The translations under genes were made by a program, and so were the position numbers. Positions 3 through 23,092 of a stretch of 64,000 nt of DNA are shown one piece after another (the first letter of the stretch is position 1; the number at the start of each line of letters is the position of its first letter). This stretch comes from Gammaproteobacteria bacterium HGW-Gammaproteobacteria-1 (GTDB lineage Bacteria; Pseudomonadota; Gammaproteobacteria; Thiohalomonadales; Thiohalomonadaceae). Below the pieces are notes generated by a model that made no database searches, was not told the origin of the DNA, and was given only the letters and a program-made list of their open reading frames with translations. The stretch lies in contig PGZL01000008.1 in NCBI GenBank assembly GCA_002840095.1, positions 389,790 through 453,789 of the forward strand. Reading direction: 5' to 3'.

Positions 3-1265
3 GGCGATGCCTTCGGCGCGGTGATGGTGGAACTGATTTCGCCGGATCGGCGCGAGGTGACCAATACCGAATTCATCCGCGCCTGGCAGGCGAAGGTGGC
101 GCCGGTTCCGGGCCTGGAAACCTTTGCGGTGGGTGCGCGCATGAGCGGGCCGCCGGGCCGCGATCTGGAGATCCGCCTCACCGGCCCGGATGTCGAGAGC
201 CTGAAGGCGGCGGCGCTGGACCTGACCGGCGTGCTGAACAACTACACCGGCGTATCGGCGGTGGAGGACGACATGCCCTTCGGCCGCGAGCAGCTCATCT
301 ACCGGCTTACGCCGGAAGGCCGCGCCGCGGGACTGACGGTGGAGGCGGTGGGACGGCAGTTGCGCGCCGCCTTCGACGGCCGTATCGCGCAGATCTACCA
401 GGACGGCCTGGACGAAATTGAGGTGCGCGTGGTGTTGCCGGACAACGAGCGTCACCGCATGGCCGGCCTGGAGCGTTTCGCCATCTTCCTGCCCGACGGC
501 CGCAGCCTGCCCTTCGGCACTGTCGCCGAGCTGGTGTCGCGCCAGGGCTTCGAGGCCCTGCGCCACGCCGACAGTCGCCTCGCGGTGCAGGTGTCCGGCG
601 ACGTGGACCGCACGCAGAACAATGCCGGCCGCATCATCGCCTCCTTGCAGGACGGCGTGCTGCCCGAGCTGGCGGCGCGTTACGGCATCGATTATTCGTT
701 CCAGGGCCGCGCCGCCGATCAGGCGGAGACCATCGGTGACATGAAGATGGGACTGGTGTTCGCGTTGCTGGGGATCTACGTCACCCTGGCCTGGGTGTTC
801 GGTTCCTACGGCTGGCCGCTGGTGGTGATGGCGATTATTCCCTTCGGCATCCTCGGCGCGCTGGTGGGGCACTGGGTGATGGGTACCGAGCTGACTGTGC
901 TGTCGCTGTTCGGGCTGTTCGGCCTCACCGGCATCGTGGTCAACAACTCCATCATCCTGGTGAGTTTCTATCAGGCATTGCGTGATGAGGGCATGGACAC
1001 CGGTGCCGCCATCGTCGAGGCTTCATGCCAGCGCCTGCGCGCCGTACTGCTCACCTCGCTGACCACCATAGTCGGCCTGGTGCCGCTGCTGTTCGAGCGC
1101 TCGTTGCAGGCCCAGTTCCTGATCCCCATGGCCATTTCGCTGGTGTTCGGCCTGGCCGTCGCCACCGCCCTGGTGCTGGTGGTGATCCCGGCGCTGCTGT
1201 CCTGGCACGAGCAATGGGCGGAAAGCTTCGCTGCCTGGCGCGGCAGGGTATCCGAACACGTCTAG
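3..1265 (+). CDS. RND efflux transporter permease (AcrB/CzcA superfamily), C-terminal ~420 aa; 5' end outside window
   Basis: Frame is open to the window edge. A periplasmic porter-type segment is followed by a hydrophobic C-terminal bundle with RND-typical stretches (GLVFALLGIYVTLAWVFGSYGWPLVVM, IVVNNSIILVSF, RLRAVLLTSLTTIVGLVPLLF). Confidence 0.85.
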   Translation, partial: GDAFGAVMVELISPDRREVTNTEFIRAWQAKVAPVPGLETFAVGARMSGPPGRDLEIRLTGPDVESLKAAALDLTGVLNNYTGVSAVEDDMPFGREQLIYRLTPEGRAAGLTVEAVGRQLRAAFDGRIAQIYQDGLDEIEVRVVLPDNERHRMAGLERFAIFLPDGRSLPFGTVAELVSRQGFEALRHADSRLAVQVSGDVDRTQNNAGRIIASLQDGVLPELAARYGIDYSFQGRAADQAETIGDMKMGLVFALLGIYVTLAWVFGSYGWPLVVMAIIPFGILGALVGHWVMGTELTVLSLFGLFGLTGIVVNNSIILVSFYQALRDEGMDTGAAIVEASCQRLRAVLLTSLTTIVGLVPLLFERSLQAQFLIPMAISLVFGLAVATALVLVVIPALLSWHEQWAESFAAWRGRVSEHV

Positions 1266-1287
1266 GAGCCGGAGCTTCCCCGGCATG

Positions 1288-1373
1288 TAGGATGGGTAGA
1301 GCGCAGCGAAACCCATCATTGGCGCTTCGATGATCACCGGGTGATGGGTTTCGCTTTGCTCTACCCATCCTAC
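1288..1373. repeat. Inverted pair of GTAG-type REPs (GTAGGATGGGTAGAGCGCAGCGAAACCCATC)
   Basis: Left arm at 1288-1317 and reverse-complement arm at 1343-1373. The same REP recurs three times in 62098-62560. Confidence 0.85.
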
Positions 1374-1422
1374 GAAAGACTGTTCGGTCCTTAGGGTGGA
1401 TCTGTCCCGGGCGGAGGGCAAT

Positions 1423-1452
1423 GTCGGATTACGCTGCGCTAACCCGACCTAC
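1423..1452 (-). repeat. Single REP (GTAGGTCGGGTTAGCGCAGCGTAATCCGAC on minus strand)
   Basis: A GTAG head plus a stem-loop with an AGCGCAGCG loop. Confidence 0.7.
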
Positions 1453-1479
1453 ATTGTTTTGTATCTTCCGTCTTCTCCT

Positions 1480-2046
1480 TTACTTCACGCCCTTGTCGCG
1501 CAAAAAGCCGCTGTAGCCCTGATCGGTGCCGTTGATGTGGTTGAGCAGCCACTTCTTGAGGAACTGCACCGCCTCTTCGATGGTGTCCTGCGGCTTGTCG
1601 TTGTAGCGCCGCATCAGTTCGTCGACCTTGGCGATCATCGCGGTGTGTTCGCCCTGGTGGGCGGTGAACGCGGGATAACCGTGGGTCTGCATCAATTCCT
1701 CTTCGCGCCGGAAGTGGGTCTTGGTGTAGTCCACCAGCGCATCGAAGGCTTCGCGCTCGTACTGCGGGTCGGTCTGGTAGTGGGCCGCGGTCTGCAACTG
1801 GTTGATGAGGTTGAGCAGCTTCTTGTGATCGTTGTCGATGGCCTCGATGCCGACGCTGTAGGAGTCCTGCCATTCCAGGAAGCGGTTGGCGACGATCCGC
1901 TTGTGGATGTAGGGCACCAGCGCCAGCACGATGATCAGGCCCCATGACACCGGGTTAAAAACGCTGACCATGAAGCCGAGCAGGATCACGGTGATGACGA
2001 TCAACAGCAGCAGCGCCAGGCCGAACATGCTCCATTGCTTGTTCAT
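1480..2046 (-). CDS. Membrane-anchored bacteriohemerythrin-domain protein
   Basis: Two N-terminal hydrophobic helices, then a hemerythrin/HHE pattern (WQDSYSVGIEAIDNDHKKL, HFRREEELM, HQGEHTAM, WLLNHINGTD). ATG at 2046 sits behind a G-rich SD; the track ORF start at 2070 is the alternative. Confidence 0.8.
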   Translation of the reverse strand: MNKQWSMFGLALLLLIVITVILLGFMVSVFNPVSWGLIIVLALVPYIHKRIVANRFLEWQDSYSVGIEAIDNDHKKLLNLINQLQTAAHYQTDPQYEREAFDALVDYTKTHFRREEELMQTHGYPAFTAHQGEHTAMIAKVDELMRRYNDKPQDTIEEAVQFLKKWLLNHINGTDQGYSGFLRDKGVK

Positions 2047-2157
2047 GTGTACCCCCGGATGAGTTGGCAATAGATGACTCGGCAGGGTATCCCTGCCGCA
2101 CTGCCGGTCATTGTGGGTAAGGGCGGGCCGGGGTTACTTGATCTGGGTCAAGGCAGC

Positions 2158-2586
2158 TCAGGCGCCGCATCCGGATGGCGTTCGCAGGGTCGCCGGGCCG
2201 GCGCCGACGATGGCGGAGTGATGCCGGGCTGCGGCATTCAGGGCCTGGTCCAGCACCATGCCCGCTTCGACGCCGTCCATGATCAGGCGCTGCAGGATGG
2301 CGCCGAGCATGGCGATGTTGTCGCGCATGTGTTCCTTGATGGGTTGCAGTATGTGCACGTCCAGCGGCGGGTCTTCCGGCAGGGTCCGTGCGAAGGCGGC
2401 GAAGTCGCGGCCGGTGGCCAGCCAGTAGCACATGTCGTAAATCAAATCGAAGGATTGCTGGAAGGCGGCCGGGTCGTCCGTGCCGAGGTTGGCGCGCAAT
2501 TCTTCCGCCAAATCGTTGCGGAACTGTTCCAGGCCGTAGCCGATCTCGCCTTTGACGATGTGTTCCGGGCTGAAGTCCCATTGCAT
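2158..2586 (-). CDS. Hypothetical 142-aa cytoplasmic protein (no family recognised)
   Basis: ATG at 2586 is preceded by AGGAGA. The gene starts 18 nt downstream of the stop of the ferredoxin gene on the same strand. Codon usage is consistent with its neighbours. Confidence 0.55.
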   Translation of the reverse strand: MQWDFSPEHIVKGEIGYGLEQFRNDLAEELRANLGTDDPAAFQQSFDLIYDMCYWLATGRDFAAFARTLPEDPPLDVHILQPIKEHMRDNIAMLGAILQRLIMDGVEAGMVLDQALNAAARHHSAIVGAGPATLRTPSGCGA

Positions 2587-2603
2587 GATTCTTCTCCTGT
2601 GGG

Positions 2604-3695
2604 TTAGCCGAAGATGGCGCTGAAGCTGTCGTTGTCGTCATCGCACACGGGGCAGCCGTCGCCGGCGTCCGTGGTGACATACAGGCGCCCGCAGCGTTCG
2701 CAACGCCGCCGCGGCACCACGTGCAGGTTGCGTACCGCCGCGGCGGCGGTGACGGTTTCCGCCAGGCGCAGGGCGCCGCGGTGGCAGGACTCCACGCACA
2801 CGCCGCAGCCCACGCAGCGCGGCGGGTTGAGACGCAGCACCCAGGCGGTGGCGGTCTCGCCAGCGACCAGGGCGCCGGTGGGACAGACCCGGCCGCAGGT
2901 TTCGCAGGCGGTGCAGGCGGCGGGATCAATCACCGGTACGCCGGCCGGCAGGGCGGGATGGGCGGGCAGCGCGGCGTCTTCGCCGGCGCCGTTGACGAGC
3001 AGGGCCTGCAGCAGTTCGCGCCGCGAAGGCAGGAAGGGCGCGGCGGCGCGTATGGCCCTGGCCGGTACCGGCGCCTGATCCTGAACCGGGTGTTGCAGCT
3101 GATCGATGCCGCGGCCGAACAGGCGGCGGAAGAACTGCCGTCGCTGCGGCTGTGCCTTTACCGCATTGGGGGCGGCATCGGCCAGCGTTACCTCGCCCCA
3201 GCGCACGCCGGGCGCTGCGGCGCGCAGCAGGGTCACGGCATCGAGCACCTGTGCCAGGGCCTCGGCGCCGGCGGTGCCGTGGGCGCAGTCGGCGCAGTGG
3301 TCGTGGCCAAGGAGTTCCACCTGGGTGCCGCGCGCCAGCAGGGCGGCGAAGGTGACCGGATCCAGCGCGCCCAGGCAGGGCGCGATGGCGGGGGCTTCAC
3401 GATCCGAGGGGGCGCAGGCGATGGTCAGCCGGTTGCCCGCGCGGGACAGTTCCAGCCAGTCGCGCCAGGGCAGGTTCTCCGCCTGCAAGGCGCCGGTGGG
3501 GCAGGCGCCGGCGCACAGGCCGCAGTTCCGGCAACGCTCCTGGCTCAGTTCGAAACCTTCTTCATCGAGCGCCAGCGCTTCGTGGGGACAGGCGGTGGCG
3601 CAGCTGTCGCATTCGCTGTAACGGAAGCGATAACGGGTGCAGCGCGCGGGGTGGGTGCGGGGATAGGCGCTGAGGTTGGCGGCAGGCGTGCTCAT
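2604..3695 (-). CDS. Cytoplasmic poly-ferredoxin (4Fe-4S dicluster domains x2) with C-terminal Zn-ribbon-like knuckles
   Basis: Motifs CDSCATACP, CRNCGLCAGACP, CTACETCGRVCP and CVGCGVCVESCH, plus CERCGR...CPVCDDD. No signal peptide. Its start overlaps the upstream stop (ATGA at 3692-3695). Confidence 0.8.
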   Translation of the reverse strand: MSTPAANLSAYPRTHPARCTRYRFRYSECDSCATACPHEALALDEEGFELSQERCRNCGLCAGACPTGALQAENLPWRDWLELSRAGNRLTIACAPSDREAPAIAPCLGALDPVTFAALLARGTQVELLGHDHCADCAHGTAGAEALAQVLDAVTLLRAAAPGVRWGEVTLADAAPNAVKAQPQRRQFFRRLFGRGIDQLQHPVQDQAPVPARAIRAAAPFLPSRRELLQALLVNGAGEDAALPAHPALPAGVPVIDPAACTACETCGRVCPTGALVAGETATAWVLRLNPPRCVGCGVCVESCHRGALRLAETVTAAAAVRNLHVVPRRRCERCGRLYVTTDAGDGCPVCDDDNDSFSAIFG

Positions 3696-4129
3696 TGGGC
3701 CTCGAAGACGTGCGCCGGTTCACCGGGCTGGCAGGTGTCGCGGGGGATGACGAAGCCGTAGGAGGAGGTGTCCTCCACCGGGGCGCTGAGATAGGCATCG
3801 CGTGCCGCTTCATAGGCGGCAAGCCCGCCGGCGGCGACATAGGCGCGGACCCCGTCATCGCGCTTTTCCAGCGTCTCGGCGATGGCCAGCGCCTGATCGT
3901 CGCGGTCGCCCACGATCAGCACCACGCCGCGACGGGCGCGGGTGGCGGCACCGTAGACGACGGCGCCGGCGAGGGGAGCGGTTCGCTGCTTTTCGCTGCG
4001 TGCGTCCAGCAGTTGCAGGCTCAGGCCGTAGTCGTTCATCAATTTGATCATGACCTCGTTGTCGGCCAGTTCGGCGGCAGGCAGTGCGGTGGATAACAGG
4101 AGCAATGCGATGACTGGAAGCGATCTCAT
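3692..4129 (-). CDS. Secreted rhodanese-homology-domain protein lacking the catalytic Cys
   Basis: Internal ATG at 4129 of the 488-aa track ORF gives a signal peptide (MRSLPVIALLLLSTALPAAE). A rhodanese-like core follows (LLDARSE...VVLIVGDRDDQALAIAETL...AAGGLAAYEAA), but the active-site loop reads VGDRDDQ instead of CxxxxxR. ATGA overlaps occur at both ends. Confidence 0.6.
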   Translation of the reverse strand: MRSLPVIALLLLSTALPAAELADNEVMIKLMNDYGLSLQLLDARSEKQRTAPLAGAVVYGAATRARRGVVLIVGDRDDQALAIAETLEKRDDGVRAYVAAGGLAAYEAARDAYLSAPVEDTSSYGFVIPRDTCQPGEPAHVFEAQ

Positions 4130-4830
4130 CCGTCTTGTGTCGTAGTGGGGGCGACTGTGGGAACGGCCGCCGCGAGCCGTTCCAGTTCGACCGCCGTGCA
4201 GGTGTCGGCGTTCACGACGAGTTGCCGCGCGCCGCCGTCGCGTATCCATTCGGCCGGGTCGCCGGCTGCATCGGCGAATGTCAGCCACAGGCGGTCGCCG
4301 ATTTCCTCGCTCAGTTCGGCACAGATACCGAGATCGTCCTCTGTCGCCTGGTGCAGGGAAAGCAGCAACTGTTCCACGCCCAGCCGCGCCATTTCGCGCG
4401 CGAACCAGGCGGCGTCGGTGCCGGTGCCCGTACCGTCGGCCAGCAGCAGTTCCCAGCGCGGTACCGGGCAGGTGGGCATGATGAAGCTGAAGTCGGCGTT
4501 GGATTCGCGATTGATCGACCAGCTTACTTCCATGCGCCGGGCCGGCAGCCACAGGCCGACGCGCTGGGCGCCGAAGCGGGCGATGGCCTCCTGCACCAGG
4601 GCGGTATCGAGCAGGGCCGTCTCGCCCAGCAGAACGCGGCGGGCGCCGGCGGCGAGCAGCGTGTCGGCCCGCGCCAGGGTGCCGCGCTCCATGACGACAT
4701 GGGCGCCGGCGCAGACGGGCGCCCCGGTTTCGTCGTCGAACATGAACAGCGGGTGGTCGGGCGGCGCGAAGCCGGGCGCCGACCAGGCGCCGACGGTGAG
4801 GGTGGCGGCAGAGGGCAGCGCGGCGTTCAT
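4126..4830 (-). CDS. HisA/HisF-like TIM-barrel family protein
   Basis: ATG at 4830. The segment RADTLLAAGARRVLLGETALLDTALVQEAIARFGAQRVGLWL resembles the HisA/HisF beta-alpha barrel signature. The gene is translationally coupled on both sides. Confidence 0.5.
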   Translation of the reverse strand: MNAALPSAATLTVGAWSAPGFAPPDHPLFMFDDETGAPVCAGAHVVMERGTLARADTLLAAGARRVLLGETALLDTALVQEAIARFGAQRVGLWLPARRMEVSWSINRESNADFSFIMPTCPVPRWELLLADGTGTGTDAAWFAREMARLGVEQLLLSLHQATEDDLGICAELSEEIGDRLWLTFADAAGDPAEWIRDGGARQLVVNADTCTAVELERLAAAVPTVAPTTTQDG

Positions 4831-5213
4831 ACGGCGATCCGGTTGGTCTGGAAGGACAGGGGCGGCGCGCCCAGCCACAGCGTCTGCGACTTGCCGTCGA
4901 GCCGGTCGCGCAGGGCGCGCACGCCCTCCAGGATCGGGCCGATGCGCAGGCCGGCATAGGCCGGAGCGAATTCGGGCAGGGTGCGCAGGGCATCGTCCAC
5001 GAACAGTTCGGCGCTCTCGTTATTGCGTTCGGCGGCGAAGTGAAAGGCCAGGGCGGCGAAGGCCATGGCCTGGAGGAAGCGCGCCAGCACGTCGCGTTCG
5101 CCGCTGCTGCTTTCCTGGATGATGCGTGACCAGCGTTCGTTGATCCAGTCGTGCACAACGTACATGTCGCCGCTGTTCCAGTAGTCGGCCAGTTCGTCCC
5201 ATAGCAGGAGCAT
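4827..5213 (-). CDS. DUF309-like small helical protein
   Basis: ATG at 5213 behind GAGGA. The stretch WNSGDMYVVHDWINERW...RDVLARFLQAMAFAALAFHFAAE resembles the DUF309 'HExxEexW ... lqGliq.A' pattern. Confidence 0.45.
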   Translation of the reverse strand: MLLLWDELADYWNSGDMYVVHDWINERWSRIIQESSSGERDVLARFLQAMAFAALAFHFAAERNNESAELFVDDALRTLPEFAPAYAGLRIGPILEGVRALRDRLDGKSQTLWLGAPPLSFQTNRIAV

Positions 5214-5233
5214 GGTGGTGTCCTCGCTCGGTA

Positions 5234-5983
5234 TCAGGCGCCGCAGCGCATGGGTTCGTCGGCGCCGGCCAGGGGCGGCAACTCCATCCTGCCCTGGTCC
5301 TCGTCGGTGACGTCCAGGCCCAGCAGCTCCAGTTCGAACGCGGCGAAGGCGTCGAGCAGCATGGCCGTCTCGCGGTAGAAAGAGTGGCTGGCTGCGCGCT
5401 CCACCAGGGCGGCATAGCCGCGCACCCAACGGCCCAGGTGCTGGGCCCAGAAACGCTTGACGCTCTTCTCCAGCCGGCGCTGCTCCTGGTTGTCGCCGCG
5501 CTGCATGGCGATGACGATGCGGTCCATCAGCGCGGCGATGAATTGCAGCTCCACGCCCAGCTGATCGTCAAATACCTGGAAACGGCCCGCACCGACGGAA
5601 AAACCCTCCTTGGCGTAGAACTCGCGTGCGGCAAAGCAAGGGTCTTGCTGAAAACCGCCTTTCAGGCGTACCGATTCCACCGGCGGAAAGCCGCCCGAGG
5701 AGGCGAACAGTACGGTGTATTCGCAGGCCAGGGTTTCCTGCAGTTCGTCCGGCGTGGGATCGATGAAATCGTTGTCGAAGGTGACGCCCAGTTCGGCGAG
5801 CGCCTCCAGTGATTCGGGGGTACGCAGGGCCGCCAGATAGTCGCGGCCGGGTTCTTCGATAAAGGCACCGGCGAGCAGCCGGTAATAGTGGGCGCGCGCG
5901 GCATATTCCTCCGCGGTACAGGCGGCGGGGGCAACGGCCTCCTGGCGCACGATCTCCAGGGGAATGGTGAACAGGTCCGACAT
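5234..5983 (-). CDS. TorD/DmsD-family redox-enzyme maturation chaperone
   Basis: ATG at 5983 behind GGAGG. TorD-like pattern present (YRLLAGAFIEEP..., EYTVLFASSGGFPPVESV, DDQLGVELQFIAALM, FWAQHLGRWV, FYRETAMLLDAF). It lies downstream of the molybdoenzyme gene. Confidence 0.75.
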   Translation of the reverse strand: MSDLFTIPLEIVRQEAVAPAACTAEEYAARAHYYRLLAGAFIEEPGRDYLAALRTPESLEALAELGVTFDNDFIDPTPDELQETLACEYTVLFASSGGFPPVESVRLKGGFQQDPCFAAREFYAKEGFSVGAGRFQVFDDQLGVELQFIAALMDRIVIAMQRGDNQEQRRLEKSVKRFWAQHLGRWVRGYAALVERAASHSFYRETAMLLDAFAAFELELLGLDVTDEDQGRMELPPLAGADEPMRCGA

Positions 5984-6007
5984 GGTAACCCTCCGATGAT
6001 CCAGGTG

Positions 6008-6212
6008 TAGAGAGAGATACAAGTTACAAGCCATGTAGGGTGGATAAGCGGAGCGCATCCACCGGGAGAGAGATAAAAGATACAAGTTACAAGATGCAAG
6101 TGAATGAACCCGCTGCGCGCGTGCTGTTTGAAATGCGAACAATCATGCGCGCAGCGCAGTCATCCTTCTGTATCTCTCCTCTTTTCTCTTTCCTCTTTGC
6201 TCTTGTATCTGC
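6008..6212. repeat. Composite palindromic element (TACAAG-type arms + conserved core) with an inserted REP
   Basis: Arms at 6011-6030/6064-6100 and 6166-6210. Core CGCTGCGCGC...GTTTGAA...GCGCAGCG at 6101-6165. REP GTAGGGTGGATAAGCGGAGCGCATCCACC at 6035-6063. Confidence 0.8.
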
Positions 6213-6256
6213 GTTCGGCGAAGACGCCCGCCCCGGAGGGCGGGCGCTTCGGTCCA

Positions 6257-8890
6257 TCAATGGCCACCAGTCGCCTTGTGCTTGACGCTGTCCGGGCCGG
6301 CCCAGGAGGCCATTTCCGGATGCATCTTGCGGTGCATGTCGCCGACGTAGGTGTAGCGCATGCCTTCCTTGTACCACTGCACGTGCTTGTTCCAGTCGGC
6401 CACCATGTCGCCGTACTTGTCGCCGGGCTGGGCCTTGCTCACCTTCACCACCGTGTCGTACCAGCCCTGCGAGCCGCCGATGGGATCGGCGACGGCGGGG
6501 ATGATGTGGTTGGGGTGCACGCCCTTGTCGTCCCACCACACGTTCTTCAGGTCCGGGTCGTCCGCCGCGCCGTACTGGCCGGCCGCTTCCTTCAGCTTGA
6601 GCTGGGCTAGGCGGCCGTAGCCCCAGTGGCCGTGGGCGGTGGAAACGGCGATGACCTTGGGATGGATGCCCTCGGTCACCAGCGCCTTGGTGACGATGTG
6701 GCCGACGCCGCTTTCGATGCGGATCAGGTCACCGGTCTTGATGCCCAGCTTCGCCGCCGTCTCGGTACCGAGCCAGGCGGGGTTGGCGTGGGATATCTCG
6801 GCCAGCCACTTCACCGCAGCGGTGCGTGATTGCTTGTGCACGTTGAGCTTGAAGGTGGTGAGGATCATCTCATCGTCCTTCATGTTCTCGTGCCAGGGCA
6901 TGCGCTTGAAGGTGGGCATGGGATTGAAGCCGTACTCGGCCCACTGATCGACGCGCACGTTGATCAGGCGGTCATGGGTGGGGAAGCCCACGTAGTTCCT
7001 GCCCTTGCGCTGTACGCCGATCACCTTGCCGTTCTTGTGTATGGCGCCCTTGCCGTCCACCATGGCGCCGGCCATGTCGGCCGCCGACAGCTCCTTCCGG
7101 TACAGCCCGTATTCCGCCGCAATCTCGCGCCCGGACTTGTCGGAGATCTTGCCGGTCCGGGGATTGAGCTTGCCGTAGATGGGCCACACGCCGTGCTTCT
7201 TGAGGAAGTCGAGACCGCCGGCTTCCTTCAGGCCCGGAATATTCTCGAACTGCTTGCGCAGATAGTCCTCCGCGCTCTTGAATCCCCAGAACTTCTTCAT
7301 GCCGCGCGAGCCGTCCGGGTCCAGCTTGTGGATCAGCTCCTGCAGGTAGACGCGGGTTTCCTTGCCCTCGCCCAGCGGTTTGATCACCGGCTGGCGGATG
7401 GCCAGCCAGGGCCACAGCGAGCTGGGCATGGATTCCGGCTCCCAGCGTTCCAGGTAAGGCACATCCGGCAGGATGATGTCGGCCAGCTGCGCCTCTTCGC
7501 CCATGAACGGCGACAGGCAGACGTAGAACGGGATCAGCTCCTCGTTGCGGAACAGCTCGCCCCATACCGCGTCGGCGCCCGGGTTGGTGTAGACCGGATT
7601 GTCCTGGTAGGAGAAGTAGACCTTGATCTTCTGCTTGCCCTCGGTGATCCAGAACGGCACCAGGTGACTGACCTTGTGCCCGGCCAGCGGATACTCGTCG
7701 GGATGGGCCAGGTAGGACGGGGTCGCCGGCTTGGGCGGCTGTGGCTGCGGCTGGTCGTAGCCCATGCCGCGCGGCAGGCAGTAGCCGCCGCGCTTCTCGA
7801 TGTTGCCGGTCATGATCGGCAGCATCATGCAGGCCTTTTCGTTGTAGGAGCCGTACATGTGCTTGGCCGGGCCGCGGTAGGTGTAGGTGGTGGCCGGCTT
7901 GGTGGTGGCGAACTCGCGCGCGATGCGCTCGATGGTTTCCACCGGCACGCCCGACAGCTTGGCGGCCCACTCCGGAGTGAACTGCTTGTAGTGGTCCTTC
8001 AGTTCCTGCACCGAGACGTTGGTCCAGTTCTCGATGAAGTCCGAGTCCTGCAGGTTCTCGCGCAGGATCACGTGGCCGAGAGCCAGCGCCACCGCACCGT
8101 CGGTGCCCGGATACACCGGAATCCACTCGTCGGAGAAGCCGGCGGTGTTGGACAGGCGCACGTCGAAGGTGACGATCTTCATGTTGCTGTCGACACGGCC
8201 CTCGGTGACGCGCTGCGAGAAGGGATTATGGAAGTAGGCCGCCTCCAGCACGTTGGAACCGAAGTTCAGCACGTACTTGGTGTTGGCGAAGTCCGGCATT
8301 TCTATGTCCGGGCCCCAGGTGGGTTCCATACCGATCTTTTTCGACGACTCGCACACCGAGGTGTGGTTGAGGATGGTGGCCGAGCCGAGGGTGTGCATGA
8401 AGCGCTCCAACACGCCGCCGGTACGGTTGCGGCCCCACTTCAGCATGATCTCGTTGGGATGGCCGTTCGTCAGCACGTCGTCCAGGCGCGCGGCGATTTC
8501 GTTGTAGGCCTCGTCCCAGGAGATGCGCTTCCACTTGCCCTCGCCGCGCTTGCCCACGCGCTTGAGCGGATAGAGGATGCGATCCGGATCGTAGCTGTAC
8601 CACATGCCGGCATTGCCCTTGGCGCACAGGCGGCCGCGGGTGGATACGTGCTCCGGGTTGCCCTCCAGCTTGACGACGCGGCCGTTCTCGACGAAGGCGA
8701 GCGCGCCGTCCTGGATGTTGCAGACGTGGCAGTTGGTGGGGATGGACTTGCGCTCGATAAGGCTGACCGGATCGATGTCGCGGCCGCCGAGATCGGCTTC
8801 CATGGCGCGCAGCATCGACGGCGCCGCCACGGCAGCGGCGGTGGTGCCGGCGCTGGCCTTCAAAAAGGTACGGCGAGTGAGTTTCAACAT
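6257..8890 (-). CDS. Tat-exported molybdopterin (bis-PGD) oxidoreductase catalytic subunit, Psr/Phs/Ttr/Arr-Arx clade; substrate unknown
   Basis: Twin-arginine leader MLKLTRRTFLKASAG...AAPSMLRA. N-terminal FeS motif CHVCNIQD-x27-C. KRVGKRGEGKWKRISWDEA motif. Putative Mo-ligand region NHTSVCESSKK. 877 aa. Confidence 0.9.
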   Translation of the reverse strand: MLKLTRRTFLKASAGTTAAAVAAPSMLRAMEADLGGRDIDPVSLIERKSIPTNCHVCNIQDGALAFVENGRVVKLEGNPEHVSTRGRLCAKGNAGMWYSYDPDRILYPLKRVGKRGEGKWKRISWDEAYNEIAARLDDVLTNGHPNEIMLKWGRNRTGGVLERFMHTLGSATILNHTSVCESSKKIGMEPTWGPDIEMPDFANTKYVLNFGSNVLEAAYFHNPFSQRVTEGRVDSNMKIVTFDVRLSNTAGFSDEWIPVYPGTDGAVALALGHVILRENLQDSDFIENWTNVSVQELKDHYKQFTPEWAAKLSGVPVETIERIAREFATTKPATTYTYRGPAKHMYGSYNEKACMMLPIMTGNIEKRGGYCLPRGMGYDQPQPQPPKPATPSYLAHPDEYPLAGHKVSHLVPFWITEGKQKIKVYFSYQDNPVYTNPGADAVWGELFRNEELIPFYVCLSPFMGEEAQLADIILPDVPYLERWEPESMPSSLWPWLAIRQPVIKPLGEGKETRVYLQELIHKLDPDGSRGMKKFWGFKSAEDYLRKQFENIPGLKEAGGLDFLKKHGVWPIYGKLNPRTGKISDKSGREIAAEYGLYRKELSAADMAGAMVDGKGAIHKNGKVIGVQRKGRNYVGFPTHDRLINVRVDQWAEYGFNPMPTFKRMPWHENMKDDEMILTTFKLNVHKQSRTAAVKWLAEISHANPAWLGTETAAKLGIKTGDLIRIESGVGHIVTKALVTEGIHPKVIAVSTAHGHWGYGRLAQLKLKEAAGQYGAADDPDLKNVWWDDKGVHPNHIIPAVADPIGGSQGWYDTVVKVSKAQPGDKYGDMVADWNKHVQWYKEGMRYTYVGDMHRKMHPEMASWAGPDSVKHKATGGH

Positions 8891-8921: not shown

Positions 8922-9779
8922 TCAGTAGTAGGTTTGCAGGATCTGGCCGCCGTAGAGGATCGAGTAGCGCAGCGCCATGCCGCCTACCAGGATCAATACG
9001 GAGGCCGTCATCATGCCCACCTGTTGCCGTCCCAGCGGTGCCAGCAGCAGAACAATGGGAACTGCGGTGCCGGCGATGATGCCCAGGCCGATGAAGATCA
9101 GCCCCAAGGTGCCGGAGGTGAGGAACATGAAGGTCAGTTCCGCGCCGACGCCGCCGTAGGCGGTGGTGCCGAGCAGGGAAATGAGCATCGCGCCCACTGC
9201 GCCGCCGCTCCACAGCATCATCCTGCGCATGGCGCTGTTGGCCGCTTCGCTGCCCTTGGTCAGGAACGACGCCACCGCGGCGCCGGACACCAGCGACAGG
9301 CCGACAAACAGCACCGGCATCAACGGCGTGTTCCACACCGGACGGTGCTGGTGCACGGTGAGGTCGAAGCCGGTGTAGATGGGCAGCCCCAGGGCCAGCA
9401 GGCTGCCGATGATGGCCAGCCGCTTGCCGTTGACCTCGTCGCCCTTGCGCATCATGAAGAAATACAGCACCGCCACCAGGCCGAAGGAGATCAGGTTGAG
9501 ACCGCCCCAGGCCAGTGGCGACTGGAAGTTCAGATACGCCGGGTTGAGGATGTTGAGGAAGCGTCCCGGCTGCGACAGATCGCCGATCAGCAACAGTCCG
9601 CCGACGGCAAGCAGTACAAAGGACGCGTAAAAGGCGTTCTCGCGCAGCGGCCTGTAGTCTTCCCGGAACCAGGACAGGGCCGAGAAGAAGAACAGCGCCG
9701 ACGAGATGCCGATGACGAAGAAATAAATGGCGTAGGCGCTGGGCCAGGCCATCGTGTGAAACACGGTATATTCGTTCAT
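8922..9779 (-). CDS. NrfD/PsrC-type polytopic membrane quinol-interacting anchor subunit
   Basis: ATG at 9779 behind GGAGG, 14 nt after the FeS gene stop. Strongly hydrophobic multi-helix protein with NrfD-like segments (AWPSAYAIYFFVIGISS, GDLSQPGRFLNIL, PLAWGGLNLISF). Confidence 0.85.
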   Translation of the reverse strand: MNEYTVFHTMAWPSAYAIYFFVIGISSALFFFSALSWFREDYRPLRENAFYASFVLLAVGGLLLIGDLSQPGRFLNILNPAYLNFQSPLAWGGLNLISFGLVAVLYFFMMRKGDEVNGKRLAIIGSLLALGLPIYTGFDLTVHQHRPVWNTPLMPVLFVGLSLVSGAAVASFLTKGSEAANSAMRRMMLWSGGAVGAMLISLLGTTAYGGVGAELTFMFLTSGTLGLIFIGLGIIAGTAVPIVLLLAPLGRQQVGMMTASVLILVGGMALRYSILYGGQILQTYY

Positions 9780-9792: not shown

Positions 9793-10503
9793 TCAGATAT
9801 GTTTGTTGCGGTTGAACGCCGCCCGCTCGATATCGGCCTGTTCGTCCTTGTGGTAGACCGCACGGCCGTAATCGGTGAGGCTGCGGTCGGCGCCGATATA
9901 GAACACATGGGGCTTGGTGCCCTGCTCGGGACGCAGGACCTGCGTTGCATGCCTGGCCACCAGTTGCGATACCTCGCTGTTCGGGTCGTTGATGTCGCCG
10001 AAGATGCGCGAGCGGCCGACGCAGGTCTGCACGCAGGCCGGTACCAGACCCTGGATCACGCGGTGGTAGCAGAAGGTGCACTTGTCCACCACCTTGGTGA
10101 TGTCGGTGTAGGTGCGGTGCTCTGGCAGCATGAAGCGGGCGTTATAGGGGCAGGAGGCCATGCAGGCCTTGCAGCCGATGCAGCGATCGTAGTGCTGCAA
10201 CACGAAGCCACCGTCTTCTAGCTTGTAGGTGGCTTCCACCGGGCAGGCGCGCACGCACGGGGGATCGTCGCAGTGGTTGCACAGGCGCGGCAGGAATTGC
10301 TTTTTCACGGTGGGGTACTTGCCGGTCACGCGGTAGGGGACCCAGGTACGGAATACCCCCAGCGGAACGTCGTACTCCGCTTTGCACGCCACCTGGCACG
10401 CCATGCACCCGATGCAGCGGCGCACGTCGATCACCATGGCGTAGCGCCGGACGCCGGGCCTTCCCCGCGTCTCGGTCGACGACATGAGCAGTTCTTGAGT
10501 CAT
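9793..10503 (-). CDS. Four-cluster 4Fe-4S electron-transfer subunit (PsrB/TtrB/NrfC-like)
   Basis: Motifs CIGCMACQVAC, CNHCDDPPCVRACP, CIGCKACMASCP and CTFC...CVQTC. ATG at 10503 behind GGAG. It is the first gene of the operon. Confidence 0.9.
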   Translation of the reverse strand: MTQELLMSSTETRGRPGVRRYAMVIDVRRCIGCMACQVACKAEYDVPLGVFRTWVPYRVTGKYPTVKKQFLPRLCNHCDDPPCVRACPVEATYKLEDGGFVLQHYDRCIGCKACMASCPYNARFMLPEHRTYTDITKVVDKCTFCYHRVIQGLVPACVQTCVGRSRIFGDINDPNSEVSQLVARHATQVLRPEQGTKPHVFYIGADRSLTDYGRAVYHKDEQADIERAAFNRNKHI

Positions 10504-10702: not shown

Positions 10703-10846
10703 GTGTCCGCTGCGGATGCAGGAAGGGGGCGCGTCAGGCGGGTGAAACCGGGTATGGTATGGAACCGGGTGTCCCCGCGTGCCGGCTTTCCCCGGCGGCG
10801 TGCGATGTCCGGATACCCTGTCAGCGTTGGTGTGGAGGAAACGACC

Positions 10847-11725
10847 GTGGTGAATCCGGGAGTCCGTCGATGGGCGGCAGCAGCCCTGCTGGTGTTTTCG
10901 GCTTGGATGCCCTTGGCGTGGTCCGTGCAGGGGGAGCCGATAAGGATTGGTCTCACCCCCGTGTTTCTCGATGACCAGACCTCCTTTGTCGAGGACTGGC
11001 GTGCTTATCTGGAACGGCGGCTGGGGCGGCCGGTGGCGTTCTCACAACGGAGCAGTTATCGCGACATCATGGATTTGCTGTTACAGGGCAAGCTCGATTT
11101 CGCCTGGGTCTGCGGTTACCCCTACGCGCGTTACGAGTCGGAGCTGCGGCTGGCTGCGGTCCCCGTCTACCAGGGGCAGCCGCTTTATCGCGCCTACCTC
11201 ATCGTGCCGTCCGGCGATACCGCCACCCGCTCGCTGGCCGATCTGCGCAACAAGCTGTTCGCCTATTCCGACGCCGATTCCAATTCCGGCTACCTGGTCG
11301 TGCAATACCAGCTGCTGGGCATGGAGACGCGCTCCGGCGAGTTCTTCCGGCGCACCTTCTTCACCGGCGCCCACCGCAAGGTGGTGGAGGCGGTGGCGGC
11401 GGGGGTGGCCGACGGCGGCACGGTGGACGGTTACGTGTGGGACGTGCTGAACGAGTTTCACCCCGAGCTGACCTCGCGCACCCGCGTGGTGTCCCGGTCT
11501 GAAACCTATGGCTTTCCGCCCCTGGTGGCCCGCCGCGGCGTCGACGACAGGATCATGCGGGAGGTGCAGGGGGCGCTGTTGTCCATGGACCGGGATGCGG
11601 AGGGCGTGGCCCTGCTGAAGCGCCTCAGCCTGGACGGCTTTACCCAAGGCAGCTCCAGTCTGTTCGACGGCATACGCCGCATGATGGCGGCGGTACGAGG
11701 TTCCAGCGGTGCTGCACAACCTTAG
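10847..11725 (+). CDS. Periplasmic PhnD-like (phosphonate/phosphite/arsenite-type) substrate-binding protein, AioX/ArxX-like sensor partner
   Basis: GTG at 10847 lies 8 nt after GGAGG and gives the signal peptide VVNPGVRRWAAAALLVFSAWMPLAWS; the alternative ATG is at 10805. PhnD-family pattern present (IRIGLTPVF..., LLQGKLDFAWVCGYPY, SNSGYLV, GTVDGYVWD). No ABC permease or ATPase is nearby. Confidence 0.8.
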   Translation: MVNPGVRRWAAAALLVFSAWMPLAWSVQGEPIRIGLTPVFLDDQTSFVEDWRAYLERRLGRPVAFSQRSSYRDIMDLLLQGKLDFAWVCGYPYARYESELRLAAVPVYQGQPLYRAYLIVPSGDTATRSLADLRNKLFAYSDADSNSGYLVVQYQLLGMETRSGEFFRRTFFTGAHRKVVEAVAAGVADGGTVDGYVWDVLNEFHPELTSRTRVVSRSETYGFPPLVARRGVDDRIMREVQGALLSMDRDAEGVALLKRLSLDGFTQGSSSLFDGIRRMMAAVRGSSGAAQP

Positions 11726-13157
11726 TTTTCGCTACAAGGTTCCCGTTCGCTCCAGCATCCTGATCCTGGTGACGGCGGTGTTCGTCACCGTGTCGCTGAT
11801 GTACCGGGCCTATGACGACATGCGACGCGATCTGCTGTTCAATGCCGAGGGCATGAGCCGGGTGCTGGTGCGTACCCTGGTGCCGGCGATACTGCACGAC
11901 GACGTGTGGCAGGTGTACGAAGTGATCCAGTCCGCCTACCCGGCGGCGGGTGCCGATACCACGCTGGCCAGCGAACTGATCATGGTGCTGGATGCCGCCG
12001 GCAACACCTACGTCGCCAACCAGCCGAAGCGTTTCCCCATGTTGTCGGATCCGGCGCTGGGTGGTCCGGAGTTCGCCCTGCTCAAGCGTGCGGCCCTGCA
12101 GCACCAGGAGGAGACGCCCGCGGTGGTGGACCTGGATCTGGCGGAGTATCTCTACCTGGTGATGCCGATAGTGTCCGATCGGGTGCGGCTCGGCAGCCTG
12201 GTGCTGGGCTTCCCGCGTTCGCTGTTCCTGCCGCGCTTTCTCACCATCGCCAAGCGCGCGGCATGGATGACGCTGCTGAGTCTGGCGGTGCTGCTGCCCA
12301 TCACCTGGTATTGGGCCGGACGCATGGCCCGGCCCATGATCCAGCTGGCCGACTGCATGGCCCGCCTGGGCACCACGACGCCGGAGCACATGCGCTGTGA
12401 TTTGTACGAGTCGCAGGACGAAATCGGCCGCCTCGGCCTGAGCTTCCGCCGCATGCTGGCGGAGTTGCAGGAAAAGCACGCGCTGGAGCGGCAGATCGTG
12501 GTGGCCGACCGCCTCGGTGCCATCGGCCGCCTGACCTCGTCCATCGCCCACGAGATCAACAATCCGCTGGGCGGCATGCTCAATGCCATCGACACCTTCA
12601 AGCGCCACGGCAATTGCGAAGACGAGCGCACCCATCGCACCATGTCGCTGCTGGAGCGCGGCCTGCTGCAAATCCGCGACACCGTGGCGGCGCTGCTGGT
12701 GGAGGCCAAGGCCGGCAGCCACACCCTGAAGCCGGTGGACATCGAGGACATCCACACCCTGGTGGCGCCTGAAGCGGCGAAGAAATCGGCGCGCATCGAA
12801 TGGCACAATGAGCTGCGCATGCCCATCGACCTGCCGGCCACGCCGGTGCGGCAGACGCTGATCAACCTGCTGCTCAACGCCGTACATGCGGTGGAGGAGA
12901 ACGGCCTGGTGCGGTGCCGGGTCTGGGCGCGCGACGGGCGCCTGCACATGCAGATCATCAACGACGGCCGCCACATCCCGGCCGACAAGATCGAACACCT
13001 GTTCGAACCCTTTTCGCCCCTGTCGGAAACCGGTCACGGCCTGGGGCTGTGGGTGTGTTACCAAATCGTGCAGCAGCTGGGCGGTGATATCCAGGTGCAC
13101 AGCGAGCCGGGGTCCACCGTGTTCACGGTGGTCCTGCGCTACGGAGAAAACGAATGA
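11709..13157 (+). CDS. Sensor histidine kinase (2 TM, periplasmic loop, HAMP, HisKA, HATPase), AioS/ArxS-like
   Basis: H-box SSIAHEINNPLGG. N, G1 and G2 boxes present (LLLNAVHAV, IINDGRHIP, GHGLGLWV). Overlaps the binding-protein gene end and the regulator start (ATGA at 13154-13157). Confidence 0.85.
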   Translation: MLHNLSFRYKVPVRSSILILVTAVFVTVSLMYRAYDDMRRDLLFNAEGMSRVLVRTLVPAILHDDVWQVYEVIQSAYPAAGADTTLASELIMVLDAAGNTYVANQPKRFPMLSDPALGGPEFALLKRAALQHQEETPAVVDLDLAEYLYLVMPIVSDRVRLGSLVLGFPRSLFLPRFLTIAKRAAWMTLLSLAVLLPITWYWAGRMARPMIQLADCMARLGTTTPEHMRCDLYESQDEIGRLGLSFRRMLAELQEKHALERQIVVADRLGAIGRLTSSIAHEINNPLGGMLNAIDTFKRHGNCEDERTHRTMSLLERGLLQIRDTVAALLVEAKAGSHTLKPVDIEDIHTLVAPEAAKKSARIEWHNELRMPIDLPATPVRQTLINLLLNAVHAVEENGLVRCRVWARDGRLHMQIINDGRHIPADKIEHLFEPFSPLSETGHGLGLWVCYQIVQQLGGDIQVHSEPGSTVFTVVLRYGENE

Positions 13158-14518
13158 GTGGTCGTGCAGTACGACTTTGTCTGGTGGAAGACGATGCCAT
13201 CATGGGTGAATCGCTGTGCGATCGCTTCGAGCTGGAAGGCTTCGCCATCGACTGGTTCCGCAACGCGCCGGAGGCCTTCGAGGCCATCGGCCGCCTGCCC
13301 TACGGCCTGGTGATCAGCGACATCCGCATGCCCGGCATGAGCGGCGAGCAGCTGTTCGAACAGGTGCTGGAGCGCTATGCGCAGCGGCCGCCGTTTCTGT
13401 TCATCACCGGCTACGGCGCCATCGACAAGGCGGTAAAGCTGCTCAAGCTGGGCGCCGCCGACTACATCACCAAGCCCTTCGATCTGGACCAGCTGGTGCA
13501 GAAGGTGCGCGAGCTGACCGCTGCCGCTGCCGGCGCGGCACCGGACGAGGCGGCGCCGGCGCTCGGCATCTGCCCCACCATGCGCCATATCGAGGAAACC
13601 CTGCCGCACCTGGCGCAGCGCGCCAACACCATCCTGCTGACCGGCGAATCGGGCGTGGGCAAGGAGCACGTGGCGCGCCTGATCCATCACTACGGCAGCG
13701 GCGACGCCGCGCCCTTCGTGGCGGTGAACTGCGGCGCCCTCACCGAGACCCTGCTGGAAGCCGAACTGTTCGGCTATGAGAAGGGCGCCTTCACCGGCGC
13801 CCTGCGCACCAAGAAGGGCGTGTTCGAACTGGCCCACGGCGGCACCCTGCTGCTGGACGAAATCGGCGAGATGCCGTTGCCCATGCAGGTGCGACTGCTG
13901 CGCGCCATCCAGGAACGCACCGTGGTGCGCGTCGGCGGCGAGCAGCCCATACACGTGGAACTGCGGCTGATCTGCGCCACCAACCGCGATCTCAAATGCA
14001 TGGCGGAACAGGGTCATTTCCGCGAGGACCTCTACTACCGCGTCAACGTCATCCACCTGCGCATCCCGCCCCTGCGCGAGCGCAAGGAGGACGTGCTGTG
14101 GTTCGCCCGCCGTTTTCTGCAGGAGTTCACCGCCGCCCATCCCGGCGAGGGCAAGGTGCTGCACCCGGACGCCGAGCGCGCCATGCTGGGCTATCCCTGG
14201 CCGGGCAATATCCGCGAACTGCGCCATACCCTGGAACGTGCCTGCATCCTCACCCGCGGCGAAATCCTCATGCCGCAGGATCTGTTCGAGGGCAGCATCG
14301 ACGAGCCGGCACCGCCGCCGCCGCCGGGCCAGCCGGCCTGCGACGACCTCGGCCAGTACATGCGCGCCTGCGAGCGTGCCTACATCCTGCGCGCGCTGGA
14401 TTCCCATCAATGGAAGATCGGCGATACTGCCGGCTATCTCGGCATCAGCCGCAAGAACCTGTGGGAGAAGATGAAGAAATACGCCATCCAGGCGGATGCG
14501 GCGGAGGAAGACGAATAA
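13154..14518 (+). CDS. Sigma54-dependent response regulator (REC + AAA+ bEBP + Fis-type HTH), AioR/ArxR/NtrC family
   Basis: REC domain with the acceptor Asp in LVISDIRMPGMSG. Walker A GESGVGKE. GAFTGA loop (EKGAFTGA). C-terminal HTH (TAGYLGISRKNLWEKMKKY). Confidence 0.9.
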   Translation: MSGRAVRLCLVEDDAIMGESLCDRFELEGFAIDWFRNAPEAFEAIGRLPYGLVISDIRMPGMSGEQLFEQVLERYAQRPPFLFITGYGAIDKAVKLLKLGAADYITKPFDLDQLVQKVRELTAAAAGAAPDEAAPALGICPTMRHIEETLPHLAQRANTILLTGESGVGKEHVARLIHHYGSGDAAPFVAVNCGALTETLLEAELFGYEKGAFTGALRTKKGVFELAHGGTLLLDEIGEMPLPMQVRLLRAIQERTVVRVGGEQPIHVELRLICATNRDLKCMAEQGHFREDLYYRVNVIHLRIPPLRERKEDVLWFARRFLQEFTAAHPGEGKVLHPDAERAMLGYPWPGNIRELRHTLERACILTRGEILMPQDLFEGSIDEPAPPPPPGQPACDDLGQYMRACERAYILRALDSHQWKIGDTAGYLGISRKNLWEKMKKYAIQADAAEEDE

Positions 14519-19049: not shown

Positions 19050-19847
19050 TCAGCCGCCCGGCGCCACCCCAGGCTTGACGGCCTCGATGGCGGCGGAGGC
19101 GACGTAATCCTCCATACGGCGTCCCGGCGCCCAGTCGCGGATGAACCCGCGGCTTTCATCCTTGGACGCAATGCGCACGCCGGTAAAGCCCGCCGCACGC
19201 ATCATCGCTTCCAGCTCGCCGATGAGGGATGCGCCGGCCAGGCAGCCGGTATACAGCGCCAGGTCGTGTCGCGCCTGCTCGGGCAGTTCGGCGGTGGCCA
19301 CCACATCGCTGATGGCCAGGCGCCCGCCGGGCCGGAGCACCCGGAAGGCCTCGCGGAACACCTGGGCCTTGTCCGGCGAGAGGTTGATGACGCAGTTGGA
19401 GATGATCGCGTCGACGCTGGCGTCGGCCACCGGCAGGTGCTCGATCTCGCCGAGGCGGAACTCGACGTTTTGATAGCCGCCCTTGCGCGCATTGTCCCGC
19501 GCCCTGGTCAGCATTTCCGGCGTCATGTCGACACCGATTACCTTACCGGCATCGCCCACGGCGCGGGCGGCGAGGAAGGCATCGAAGCCGGCGCCGCTGC
19601 CCAGGTCGAGTACCACTTCGCCGGGCTGGACGGCGGCGATGGCCTGCGGGTTGCCGCAGCCGAGGCCGAGGTTGGCCCCTTCCGGCACCGCGCCGGCATC
19701 CGTGTCGCTATAGCCCAGCTGTAGCGCGACCACTGCGGCGGAGGCGGTGCCGCAACTGCCGCCGGCGCAGCAACCGCCGCCGTCCTGCCGCGCCACTTTG
19801 CCGTAGTTTTCCCGCACCGCGTTGCGGATTGCATCGTTGTTGTCCAT
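19050..19847 (-). CDS. arsM: Arsenite S-adenosylmethionine methyltransferase
   Basis: ATG at 19847 behind AGGAG. SAM motif VLDLGSGAGFD. Conserved As-binding cysteines present (GGGCCAGGSCG N-terminal pair, ISNCVINL, YTGCLAG). Confidence 0.85.
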   Translation of the reverse strand: MDNNDAIRNAVRENYGKVARQDGGGCCAGGSCGTASAAVVALQLGYSDTDAGAVPEGANLGLGCGNPQAIAAVQPGEVVLDLGSGAGFDAFLAARAVGDAGKVIGVDMTPEMLTRARDNARKGGYQNVEFRLGEIEHLPVADASVDAIISNCVINLSPDKAQVFREAFRVLRPGGRLAISDVVATAELPEQARHDLALYTGCLAGASLIGELEAMMRAAGFTGVRIASKDESRGFIRDWAPGRRMEDYVASAAIEAVKPGVAPGG

Positions 19848-19956
19848 GTTGCGCTCCTGGTTGGTTGTCACGTTCCCTGTACAGAACGGATGCGAAGCCG
19901 AAAAGACGCAAAAGGATTTGTCGCCGCGCGGACCTGCGCGTGCACCGAGAATGATC

Positions 19957-20520
19957 TCAGTCCGCGCCGGCCGCGGCACAGGCGGGGCCGCCGCTACGCG
20001 CCGTGTAGCCGACCAGCACGTCATCATGATCGAAATGGTAGCGGCAGCAGCGCTGGAACTCGTGCTGTAACAGCGTGCGTGCCCGCTGCACCCGCGATTT
20101 CGCGCCGGACAGGCCGATGTTCTGGCGTTCGGCGATCTCCTGCTGCGGCATGCCTGCCAGGTCCCATAGCAGGGCGATTCGATAATGTTCGGGCAGCCGC
20201 CCGGCCAAAGGTGTGATGCACGGTTCCAGCATGCGCAGCGAAACCGCGCTGTTGCCGCGGTCTGCGGCCAGCGACGCATCGATGCCGACTTCATCGCGTT
20301 GCGCGCGATAGTGATCCACGATGAGGTTGCGCGCGGTGCGCAGCAGCCAGGCGCGCAGCTGAACCGGCGCAGCGCCCTGCGGCGGGGTGTGGTGCAGGCG
20401 GAGAAAGGTTTCCTGCGCCAGATCCTCGGCCAACTCAGGACTGGGCAGCCGACGGCGCAGGTAGCGATAGACCGTCGCGTGATGCTGGTTCCAGGCGCTT
20501 TCGGTATCGGGTGTGTTCAT
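19957..20520 (-). CDS. ECF sigma factor with Cys/His-rich C-terminal extension (SigZ-like)
   Basis: ATG at 20520. Region 2 (DLAQETFLRLH) and region 4 (MPQQEIAERQNIGLSGAKSRVQRAR) are followed by QRCCRYHFDHDD...C. No adjacent anti-sigma gene. Confidence 0.8.
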   Translation of the reverse strand: MNTPDTESAWNQHHATVYRYLRRRLPSPELAEDLAQETFLRLHHTPPQGAAPVQLRAWLLRTARNLIVDHYRAQRDEVGIDASLAADRGNSAVSLRMLEPCITPLAGRLPEHYRIALLWDLAGMPQQEIAERQNIGLSGAKSRVQRARTLLQHEFQRCCRYHFDHDDVLVGYTARSGGPACAAAGAD

Positions 20521-20575
20521 TATGCACTCCGGAAATGATTGCGCGGCTCGCCCATATCGGCGGGCCGCAGGGGCA

Positions 20576-20806: not shown

Positions 20807-20819
20807 GTTTATCTCCTGG

Positions 20820-21125: not shown

Positions 21126-21140
21126 GGAATGTCCCTCAAT

Positions 21141-21194: not shown

Positions 21195-21200
21195 GCAATC

Positions 21201-23080: not shown

Positions 23081-23092
23081 GGAGGTTCCTCG

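Follow-up and report, generated by a model that had tools for sequence, protein, structure and literature searches.

In a 64 000-nucleotide stretch of DNA from Gammaproteobacteria bacterium HGW-Gammaproteobacteria-1 (contig PGZL01000008.1, positions 389 790 to 453 789; hereafter the window), a reverse-strand gene at 6257–8890 encodes the catalytic subunit (subunit A) of a putative molybdenum/tungsten enzyme in which the third of the four cysteines of the N-terminal iron–sulphur cluster motif, FS0, is replaced by an aspartate, Asp61. In the MopB superfamily, electrons pass by way of FS0 between the catalytic metal and the rest of the electron-transfer chain. The substitution is ancient and is held by purifying selection in the lineage of UnkA_AzoEb and UnkA_DecAr, to which the window protein belongs. 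We consider that FS0 in this lineage is probably a cubane [4Fe–4S] cluster with a ligand set of three Cys and one Asp and with tuned redox properties.

Subunit A is an 877-amino-acid protein, recognized from its translation, Pfam domains, fold and sequence identity as a Mo/W-bis-pyranopterin guanine dinucleotide (bisPGD) protein of the MopB type and an orthologue of UnkA_AzoEb. It is predicted to be exported by the twin-arginine translocation (Tat) pathway, with a signal peptide over approximately residues 1–30 (MLKLTRRTFLK...; 8801–8890, reverse strand; Pfam TAT_signal at residues 3–23). This is followed by Molybdop_Fe4S4 (residues 48–100), Molybdopterin and Molydop_binding domains, with scores of 38.3, 117.9 and 57.3 bits, respectively, each exceeding the gathering score. 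The domain architecture is that of a type I Mo/W-bisPGD (MopB/DMSO reductase) protein, as is the fold: an AlphaFold2 model built from a 50-sequence alignment (predicted local distance difference test (pLDDT) 89.8, predicted template modelling score (pTM) 0.90, with pLDDT 81–90 in the FS0 loop) yielded PsrA (2vpw, TMt 0.83) and then ArrA (6cz7, TMt 0.76–0.77) as its top Foldseek matches. Cys180 (8351–8353, reverse strand), in the conserved motif NHTSVCESSKK, aligns with the ligand Cys of the LCTAP motif of PsrA and is the predicted Mo/W ligand. Lys91 (8618–8620, reverse strand), in the sequence C-A-K-G, lies two positions past the fourth FS0 ligand; this position is Lys or Arg in 50/50 aligned homologues, and presumably corresponds to Lys44 of FdhH, the residue linking FS0 to the pterin in related enzymes.

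The translation of the open reading frame around FS0 reads ...TNC(54)HVC(57)NIQD(61)GALAFVENGRVVKLEGNPEHVSTRGRLC(89)AKG. The preliminary description of this DNA had reported a motif C-x2-C-x3-D-x27-C, and the translation agrees, with C54 to C89 corresponding to exactly 8731–8624 on the reverse strand. Relative to the four-cysteine FS0 motif C-x2-C-x3-C-x(24–27)-C, the spacing and the other three Cys are thus retained and the third is Asp. The codon at 8708–8710 is GAC on the reverse strand (the plus strand reads ‘gtc’), two substitutions away from the Cys codons TGC and TGT, also as described. The register, originally set by eye, holds in four alignments: pairwise alignments made with HMMER against Thermus thermophilus PsrA (2vpw), Shewanella ArrA (6cz7) and FdhA (9vap) each match D61 with the third cluster Cys, and the alignment of Duval et al. 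2008 (PMC2500031, Additional file 2) has NCHVCNIQDG in both UnkA_AzoEb and UnkA_DecAr, with Asp in the third-Cys column. A mis-register of the motif is ruled out by this agreement. In the same curated alignment the column is Cys in every ArrA, Psr/PhsA, TtrA, other UnkA and Nap/Fdh/Aro/Nas sequence, including, within the ArrA set, the A. ehrlichii sequence now called ArxA (PMC2500031), which supports the statement in the preliminary description that characterized Psr, Phs, Ttr, Arr and Arx subunits use four Cys. A sequencing or assembly error can also be dismissed as the source of Asp, because the identical subunit A protein is present on 13 contigs of public assemblies, drawn from at least two different ENA assemblies, and Asp is conserved in relatives.

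Among the best 120 homologue clusters (75–81% identity, from Thauera, Aromatoleum, Gallionella, Chromatiaceae and Rhodocyclales metagenome-assembled genomes), 119 carry Asp. We also scanned genomic loci, taking one genome per species, which yielded 80 loci at 39–82% identity, 79 of them with a readable motif. Asp was found in 72 of these (GAC in 52 and GAT in 20) and Cys, encoded by TGC or TGT, in seven. This synonymous turnover between GAC and GAT with the residue unchanged points to purifying selection on Asp. Within the lineage, the position was never occupied by Glu, Ser, Asn or Gly, which argues for a specific role of the carboxylate rather than the mere absence of Cys. Around it, C54, C57 and C89 are invariant in 50/50 diverse homologues, and C180 is retained in 41/43 Asp-type and 6/7 Cys-type homologues. 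In the branch of the window protein and in all basal branches, C54, C57, D61, C89, K91 and the motif NHTSxCESSKK are strictly conserved. On a wider scale, among 150 representatives of 50%-identity clusters, 11 have Asp and 89 have Cys at the third position, while a handful have Ser or Thr (Ser in three sequences according to the alignment); this may be the generally variable ligand across the superfamily. The Ser and Thr forms include the Tat-exported, Psr-like clusters P0198, P0200 and P0263 (CCNMCGGQSG) and P0217 (CLQCPGGTG).

The distribution of Asp was mapped onto a tree of 69 full-length sequences, built with IQ-TREE. The window protein falls in a clade of 22 sequences (Shimodaira–Hasegawa-like approximate likelihood ratio test, 100), with origin labels spanning Pseudomonadota, Nitrospirota, Thermodesulfobacteriota, Nitrospinota, Myxococcota/Deltaproteobacteria and Desantisbacteria, and every member that still has FS0 carries Asp. 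A second well-supported clade of 25 sequences, at 40–46% identity to the window protein, is mixed (17 Asp and 8 Cys). At least seven changes between Asp and Cys are required on the tree, as expected if both residues act as ligands. An approximately unbiased (AU) test rejects the tree that unites all Asp sequences (Δ log-likelihood 583, p = 0.00014); the test is somewhat weakened by the fact that its Asp group was drawn up with the tree already in view. Asp as a single-origin clade marker is thereby ruled out, and the idea that the residue might define one monophyletic group does not survive, given the mixed sister clade. The broader suggestion that it marks a distinct enzyme lineage is supported, as there is a conserved, uncharacterized clade of 22 sequences in which all members with FS0 are of the Asp type; Asp also occurs outside that clade, interchanged with Cys. 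Asp is therefore a fixed trait of the window protein's lineage and a recurrent, interchangeable alternative to Cys in this part of the family.

One derived sub-branch within the Asp clade lacks the Mo-ligand Cys, with Gly or Ser in its place, and keeps the C-C-D-C set (P0121, P0123, P0143, L057 at 11–2377 and L059 at 1011–3422), while its neighbours (P0124, P0126, P0128, P0154 and P0233) also lack every FS0 cysteine. The Mo-ligand Cys was lost first and the FS0 motif afterwards, so that the MopB protein has decayed step by step to a form with no cofactors. The degenerate relatives are not QrcB, as the NCBIfam QrcB model gives them 146–174 bits against a cut-off of 440. These losses are an argument for supposing that FS0 is degenerating in the lineage as a whole, with Asp a sign of relaxed constraint and the cluster absent or non-functional. 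We think this highly improbable for the window protein: the FS0 residues, K91 and the active-site motif are strictly conserved in its own and all basal branches, the chaperone and the B and C subunits are conserved alongside them, and the synonymous codon turnover at Asp is the mark of purifying selection. The loss of both FS0 Cys and Mo ligand that defines cofactor-less proteins of the QrcB/ActB type is not seen here, as both sites are kept (QrcB model 152 bits, cut-off 440). Judged by the conservation of Lys91, NHTSxCESSKK, the chaperone and subunits B and C, the electron wire looks functional.

If Asp61 were a bystander, the fourth ligand would have to come from elsewhere, namely from a distant Cys of subunit A, from a residue of subunit B or from His55, or else the register would be wrong. 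Subunit A has seven Cys in all (54, 57, 89, 180, 354, 371 and 458). A column-by-column inspection of the 50-sequence alignment revealed no column that is Cys in Asp-type but not in Cys-type proteins. C371 is conserved in both types; it lies three residues ahead of R374, an Arg kept in most relatives of the window protein that we take, by analogy with FdhH, to line the active site. His55 is invariant in the clade at 75% identity or above, but other proteins of the Asp type have Leu, Phe, Ile, Thr or Ser in its place. All 16 Cys of subunit B are taken by its own four clusters, and the four alignments that fix the register are independent of one another. A ligand from elsewhere is accordingly the least probable of the explanations considered here. 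When Asp- and Cys-type sisters were compared by eye in the alignment, no consistent covariation emerged among the residues around the cluster.

There is a structural precedent for Asp as an FS0 ligand. In the 3.0 Å crystal structure of the Kuenenia stuttgartiensis nitrite oxidoreductase catalytic subunit NXR-A (PDB 7B04), FS0 is bound by three Cys and Asp71, an arrangement proposed to tune its potential (PMC8387239). This ligand set, which was missing from the list of known FS0 variants in the preliminary description, means that an Asp-ligated FS0 is not new in principle. We found no example of an Asp ligand in a Psr-, Arr- or Ttr-type FS0 in literature searches. The resemblance is one of mechanism only. 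The NXR-A motif is of type II (NarG-like), C67-x3-D71-x3-C75...C115, unlike the C-x2-C-x3-D...C of the window protein; NXR-A has an Asp Mo ligand with NarH-like B and haem C partners, whereas the window protein has a Cys Mo ligand. The defining NXR combination of C-x3-D-x3-C...C with an Asp Mo ligand is thus absent, and in the HMMER comparison with NXR-A, a distant relative, only residues 194–306 align.

By analogy with Asp71 of NXR-A and with the His of NarG, the carboxylate of Asp61 would most probably ligate the fourth iron of a cubane [4Fe–4S] cluster. The enzyme would be a periplasmic B-C-A complex coupled to quinone, in which FS0 wires the Mo/W-bisPGD site to subunit B and its four clusters. 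Compared with an FS0 ligated by Cys only, as in Psr, Phs, Ttr and Arr, Asp ligation would change the potential, spin state or lability of the cluster.

Several observations weigh against this proposal. The Asp of NXR-A occupies the second motif position and that of the window protein the third. One of the 120 homologue clusters, P0114, a single contig in ENA, has Ala at this position (CHVCNIQAG); this Ala is one base from GAC and reflects either an error or an uncommon natural substitution of D by A. The losses in the degenerate sub-branch indicate that cofactor sites in this lineage can decay. AlphaFold2 models no cofactors. A [3Fe–4S] cluster is chemically just as compatible with C-x2-C-x3-D...C, and in ferredoxins that convert between 3Fe and 4Fe forms the empty corner is classically faced by Asp.

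A [3Fe–4S] FS0 held by C54, C57 and C89 only, with Asp61 non-binding or binding transiently and with a high potential as in AioA, is the alternative that we take most seriously. Only three Cys are available to the cluster and no replacement was found; moreover, AioA is a MopB enzyme that works with a 3Fe FS0, according to a passage in PMC5908839. The AioX-type sensor encoded beside the operon (see below) would suit an oxidase in need of a high-potential wire. On the other hand, if the position simply had to be ‘not Cys’, small or neutral residues should have drifted in, whereas Asp is found in approximately 190 sequences at 40–100% identity and with both codons. AioA, furthermore, loses the fourth ligand position rather than the third, and in the one MopB enzyme of solved structure whose motif contains Asp, that residue is a 4Fe ligand (PMC8387239). 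We therefore favour the Asp-ligated cubane and rate the 3Fe cluster as a rather unlikely alternative. In Pyrococcus furiosus ferredoxin, Asp ligation raises the potential relative to Cys and the cluster can be converted to the 3Fe form, and it is this convertibility that keeps the 3Fe cluster under serious consideration.

Along its entire length, subunit A shares 78% identity with CAI09802.1 (P0031) of Aromatoleum aromaticum EbN1. In its N-terminus and FS0 block, CAI09802.1 is the same as UnkA_AzoEb (YP_160703.1) in the alignments of Duval et al. 2008 (Additional files 1–2, PMC2500031). That study (BMC Evol Biol 8:206, PMC2500031) delineated an uncharacterized ‘Unk’ clade with BCA gene order, of which no member had been studied, and noted that the two sequences from Azoarcus EbN1 and Dechloromonas stand apart from the main group. 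Orthology, the BCA order and the Tat signal on subunit A place the window protein in this AzoEb/DecAr branch; UnkA_AzoEb and UnkA_DecAr share these features and NCHVCNIQDG with it, and nothing essential differs. The legend of figure 1 of the same paper gives C-X2-C-X3-C-X27-C for all clades, and the paper does not mention Asp (PMC2500031), so the residue has been in print since 2008, in a supplementary alignment, without comment.

None of the established family names fits. NCBIfam models for PhsA, ArrA, TtrA and QrcB scored 361, 184, 129 and 152 bits on subunit A against cut-offs of 694, 1600, 1750 and 440, respectively, and NCBIfam, source names and RefSeq annotation supplied only generic names for the enzyme. 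PsrA/PhsA (T. thermophilus 2VPW and Salmonella PhsA) is the best match in sequence and fold (E = 8e-57; TMt 0.83), with a Cys Mo ligand, NrfD anchor and four-cluster B subunit in common. The window enzyme differs in its third FS0 ligand, in the B-C-A rather than ABC gene order, in its sub-threshold PhsA score and in its neighbours, which are an AioX-type sensor and ars genes. Ttr has the same BCA order; however, TtrB (230 bits against 416) and TtrC (50 against 314) models fall below their cut-offs together with TtrA, and subunit B, which starts MTQELLMSSTETRGRPGVRRYAMVIDVRRC, has by our own reading no hydrophobic signal region ahead of its first cluster, unlike the Ttr B subunit with its Tat signal. 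ArrA/ArxA provides the second-best structural match (6CZ7), and the window operon likewise stands beside an X-S-R three-component regulator of the arsenic type, often within an arsenic island. The ArrA score is nonetheless below its cut-off, the gene order is neither CAB nor B2ABCD (PMC6683785), and ArrA and ArxA have four Cys in FS0. AioA, an arsenic enzyme under AioXSR control, shares a non-standard, three-Cys FS0 with the window enzyme, but its cluster is [3Fe–4S] and lacks the fourth ligand position, it pairs with a Rieske protein and not with an NrfD anchor, and it is a distant branch (NCBIfam arsenite_ox_L, 27.7 bits). A C-terminal extension of approximately 55 residues (…DKYGD…HPEMA…GGH; residues ~820–877, 6260–6433, reverse strand) runs past the TVVKVxKA end of relatives; it is kept in the clade of the window protein and missing from the clade at 40–46% identity.

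Subunit A is encoded in an operon with the gene order B-C-A-chaperone on the reverse strand. Subunit B (9793–10503, 236 amino acids; Pfam Fer4_11) is a four-cluster ferredoxin with 16 Cys in four canonical groups, for which the TtrB, DsrO and ArrB models all score under their cut-offs. Subunit C (8922–9779, 285 amino acids; Pfam NrfD) is an NrfD/PsrC-type membrane anchor, conserved in the close clade. The NarJ/TorD-family maturation chaperone (5234–5983; Pfam Nitrate_red_del) is conserved downstream of A in the same clade. Four tail genes past the chaperone (2158–5213, reverse strand) encode a 128-amino-acid protein, a HisF-like barrel of 234 amino acids, a 363-amino-acid polyferredoxin and a 142-amino-acid protein. 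These are co-conserved with the operon across the clade at 75–82% identity; a 145-amino-acid gene at 3692–4129 was found by tblastn in only one other locus. The layout X-S-R / B-C-A-chaperone, with four or five tail genes, is kept throughout that clade. MoaA is present in only about one-third of the close-clade loci.

The X-S-R genes lie on the forward strand, divergent from the operon. The first (10805–11725) encodes an AioX-type periplasmic sensor protein, X, predicted to bind arsenite, whose best PDB match is AioX (6esv/6esk, E = 1e-63), followed by ArrX (6.5e-37), with PtxB/PhnD at 1e-14 or weaker. It is followed by a sensor histidine kinase and a sigma54-dependent response regulator resembling AioS/AioR (11709–14518; assigned from Pfam and from NCBIfam AtoS/AtoC-type matches). 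All seven residues of the AioX arsenite pocket as listed by Badilla et al. 2018 (PMC5908839) are identical in X, at positions equivalent to Y88, C106, Y131, S161, S163, H192 and D210. An adjacent AioX-family protein with a predicted arsenite pocket, together with a kinase and a sigma54 regulator, is the arrangement characteristic of Arr-, Arx- and Aio-type regulation, and the intact pocket suggests that arsenite switches the operon on.

Arsenic genes recur nearby. In the window itself, 19050–24175 (reverse strand) encodes an ArsM-like methyltransferase, ArsP, a metallo-β-lactamase-fold protein and Acr3. Among related loci, Acr3 lies within 10 kb in 14 and ArsP in 10, and one or other is present in about one-third of the close-clade loci. 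Azoarcus sp. KH32C carries this locus on its plasmid pAZKH (L083), where the A subunit reads CHVCNIQDG and the adjoining genes are arsC-arsD-arsA-acr3 (3847–7707). On the strength of the AioX-like sensor and these recurrent ars neighbours, an arsenic-type oxyanion is our best guess for the substrate.

This leads to a bolder possibility, namely that arsenic/antimony oxyanion oxidoreductases arose here for a third, independent time from a Psr-type reductase scaffold, and that the redox adaptation responsible was a non-cysteinyl FS0, either ligated by Asp or of the 3Fe form. We regard this as speculative and on balance improbable. If true, it would mean a third arsenic-type lineage under arsenite control of the AioXSR type, giving electrons to the quinone pool or drawing them from it, with a counterpart to the FS0 variants of high potential in AioA (3Fe) and NXR (Asp). 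In a still bolder variant, the ‘unique’ iron bound by Asp would be accessible to substrate, as has recently been claimed for the FS0 iron of Salmonella Xsr enzymes (PMC13524816); by analogy, this could explain the relatives that keep C-C-D-C and lack the Mo ligand.

Neither an Asp-ligated FS0, known from NXR, nor the lineage itself, sighted in 2008, is new. What is new is the recognition of a conserved C-x2-C-x3-D variant in a Cys-ligated, Psr/Arr-related branch, together with its breadth, its interchange with Cys and its link to a regulator of the arsenite-sensor type. FS0 ligand variants (His in Nar, Asp in NXR and 3Fe in Aio) accompany enzymes of high-potential couples. With a conserved 3Cys/1Asp set in an enzyme that is related to Psr and Arr and has a Cys metal ligand, the list of such variants would come to include the type I branch. 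In practical terms, C-x2-C-x3-D-G is a simple sequence marker for a very common enzyme that is mislabelled in databases as a thiosulfate or polysulfide reductase. Its hosts include Betaproteobacteria of groundwater and sediment, such as Aromatoleum, Thauera, Dechloromonas, Sulfuritalea, Gallionella, Rhodoferax and Hydrogenophaga, of which A. aromaticum EbN1 and Azoarcus sp. KH32C are cultured and genetically tractable, making the question directly testable. Because the enzyme adjoins an arsenite sensor system and often ars genes, an understanding of its wiring would help to show whether aquifers harbour a third arsenic redox enzyme.

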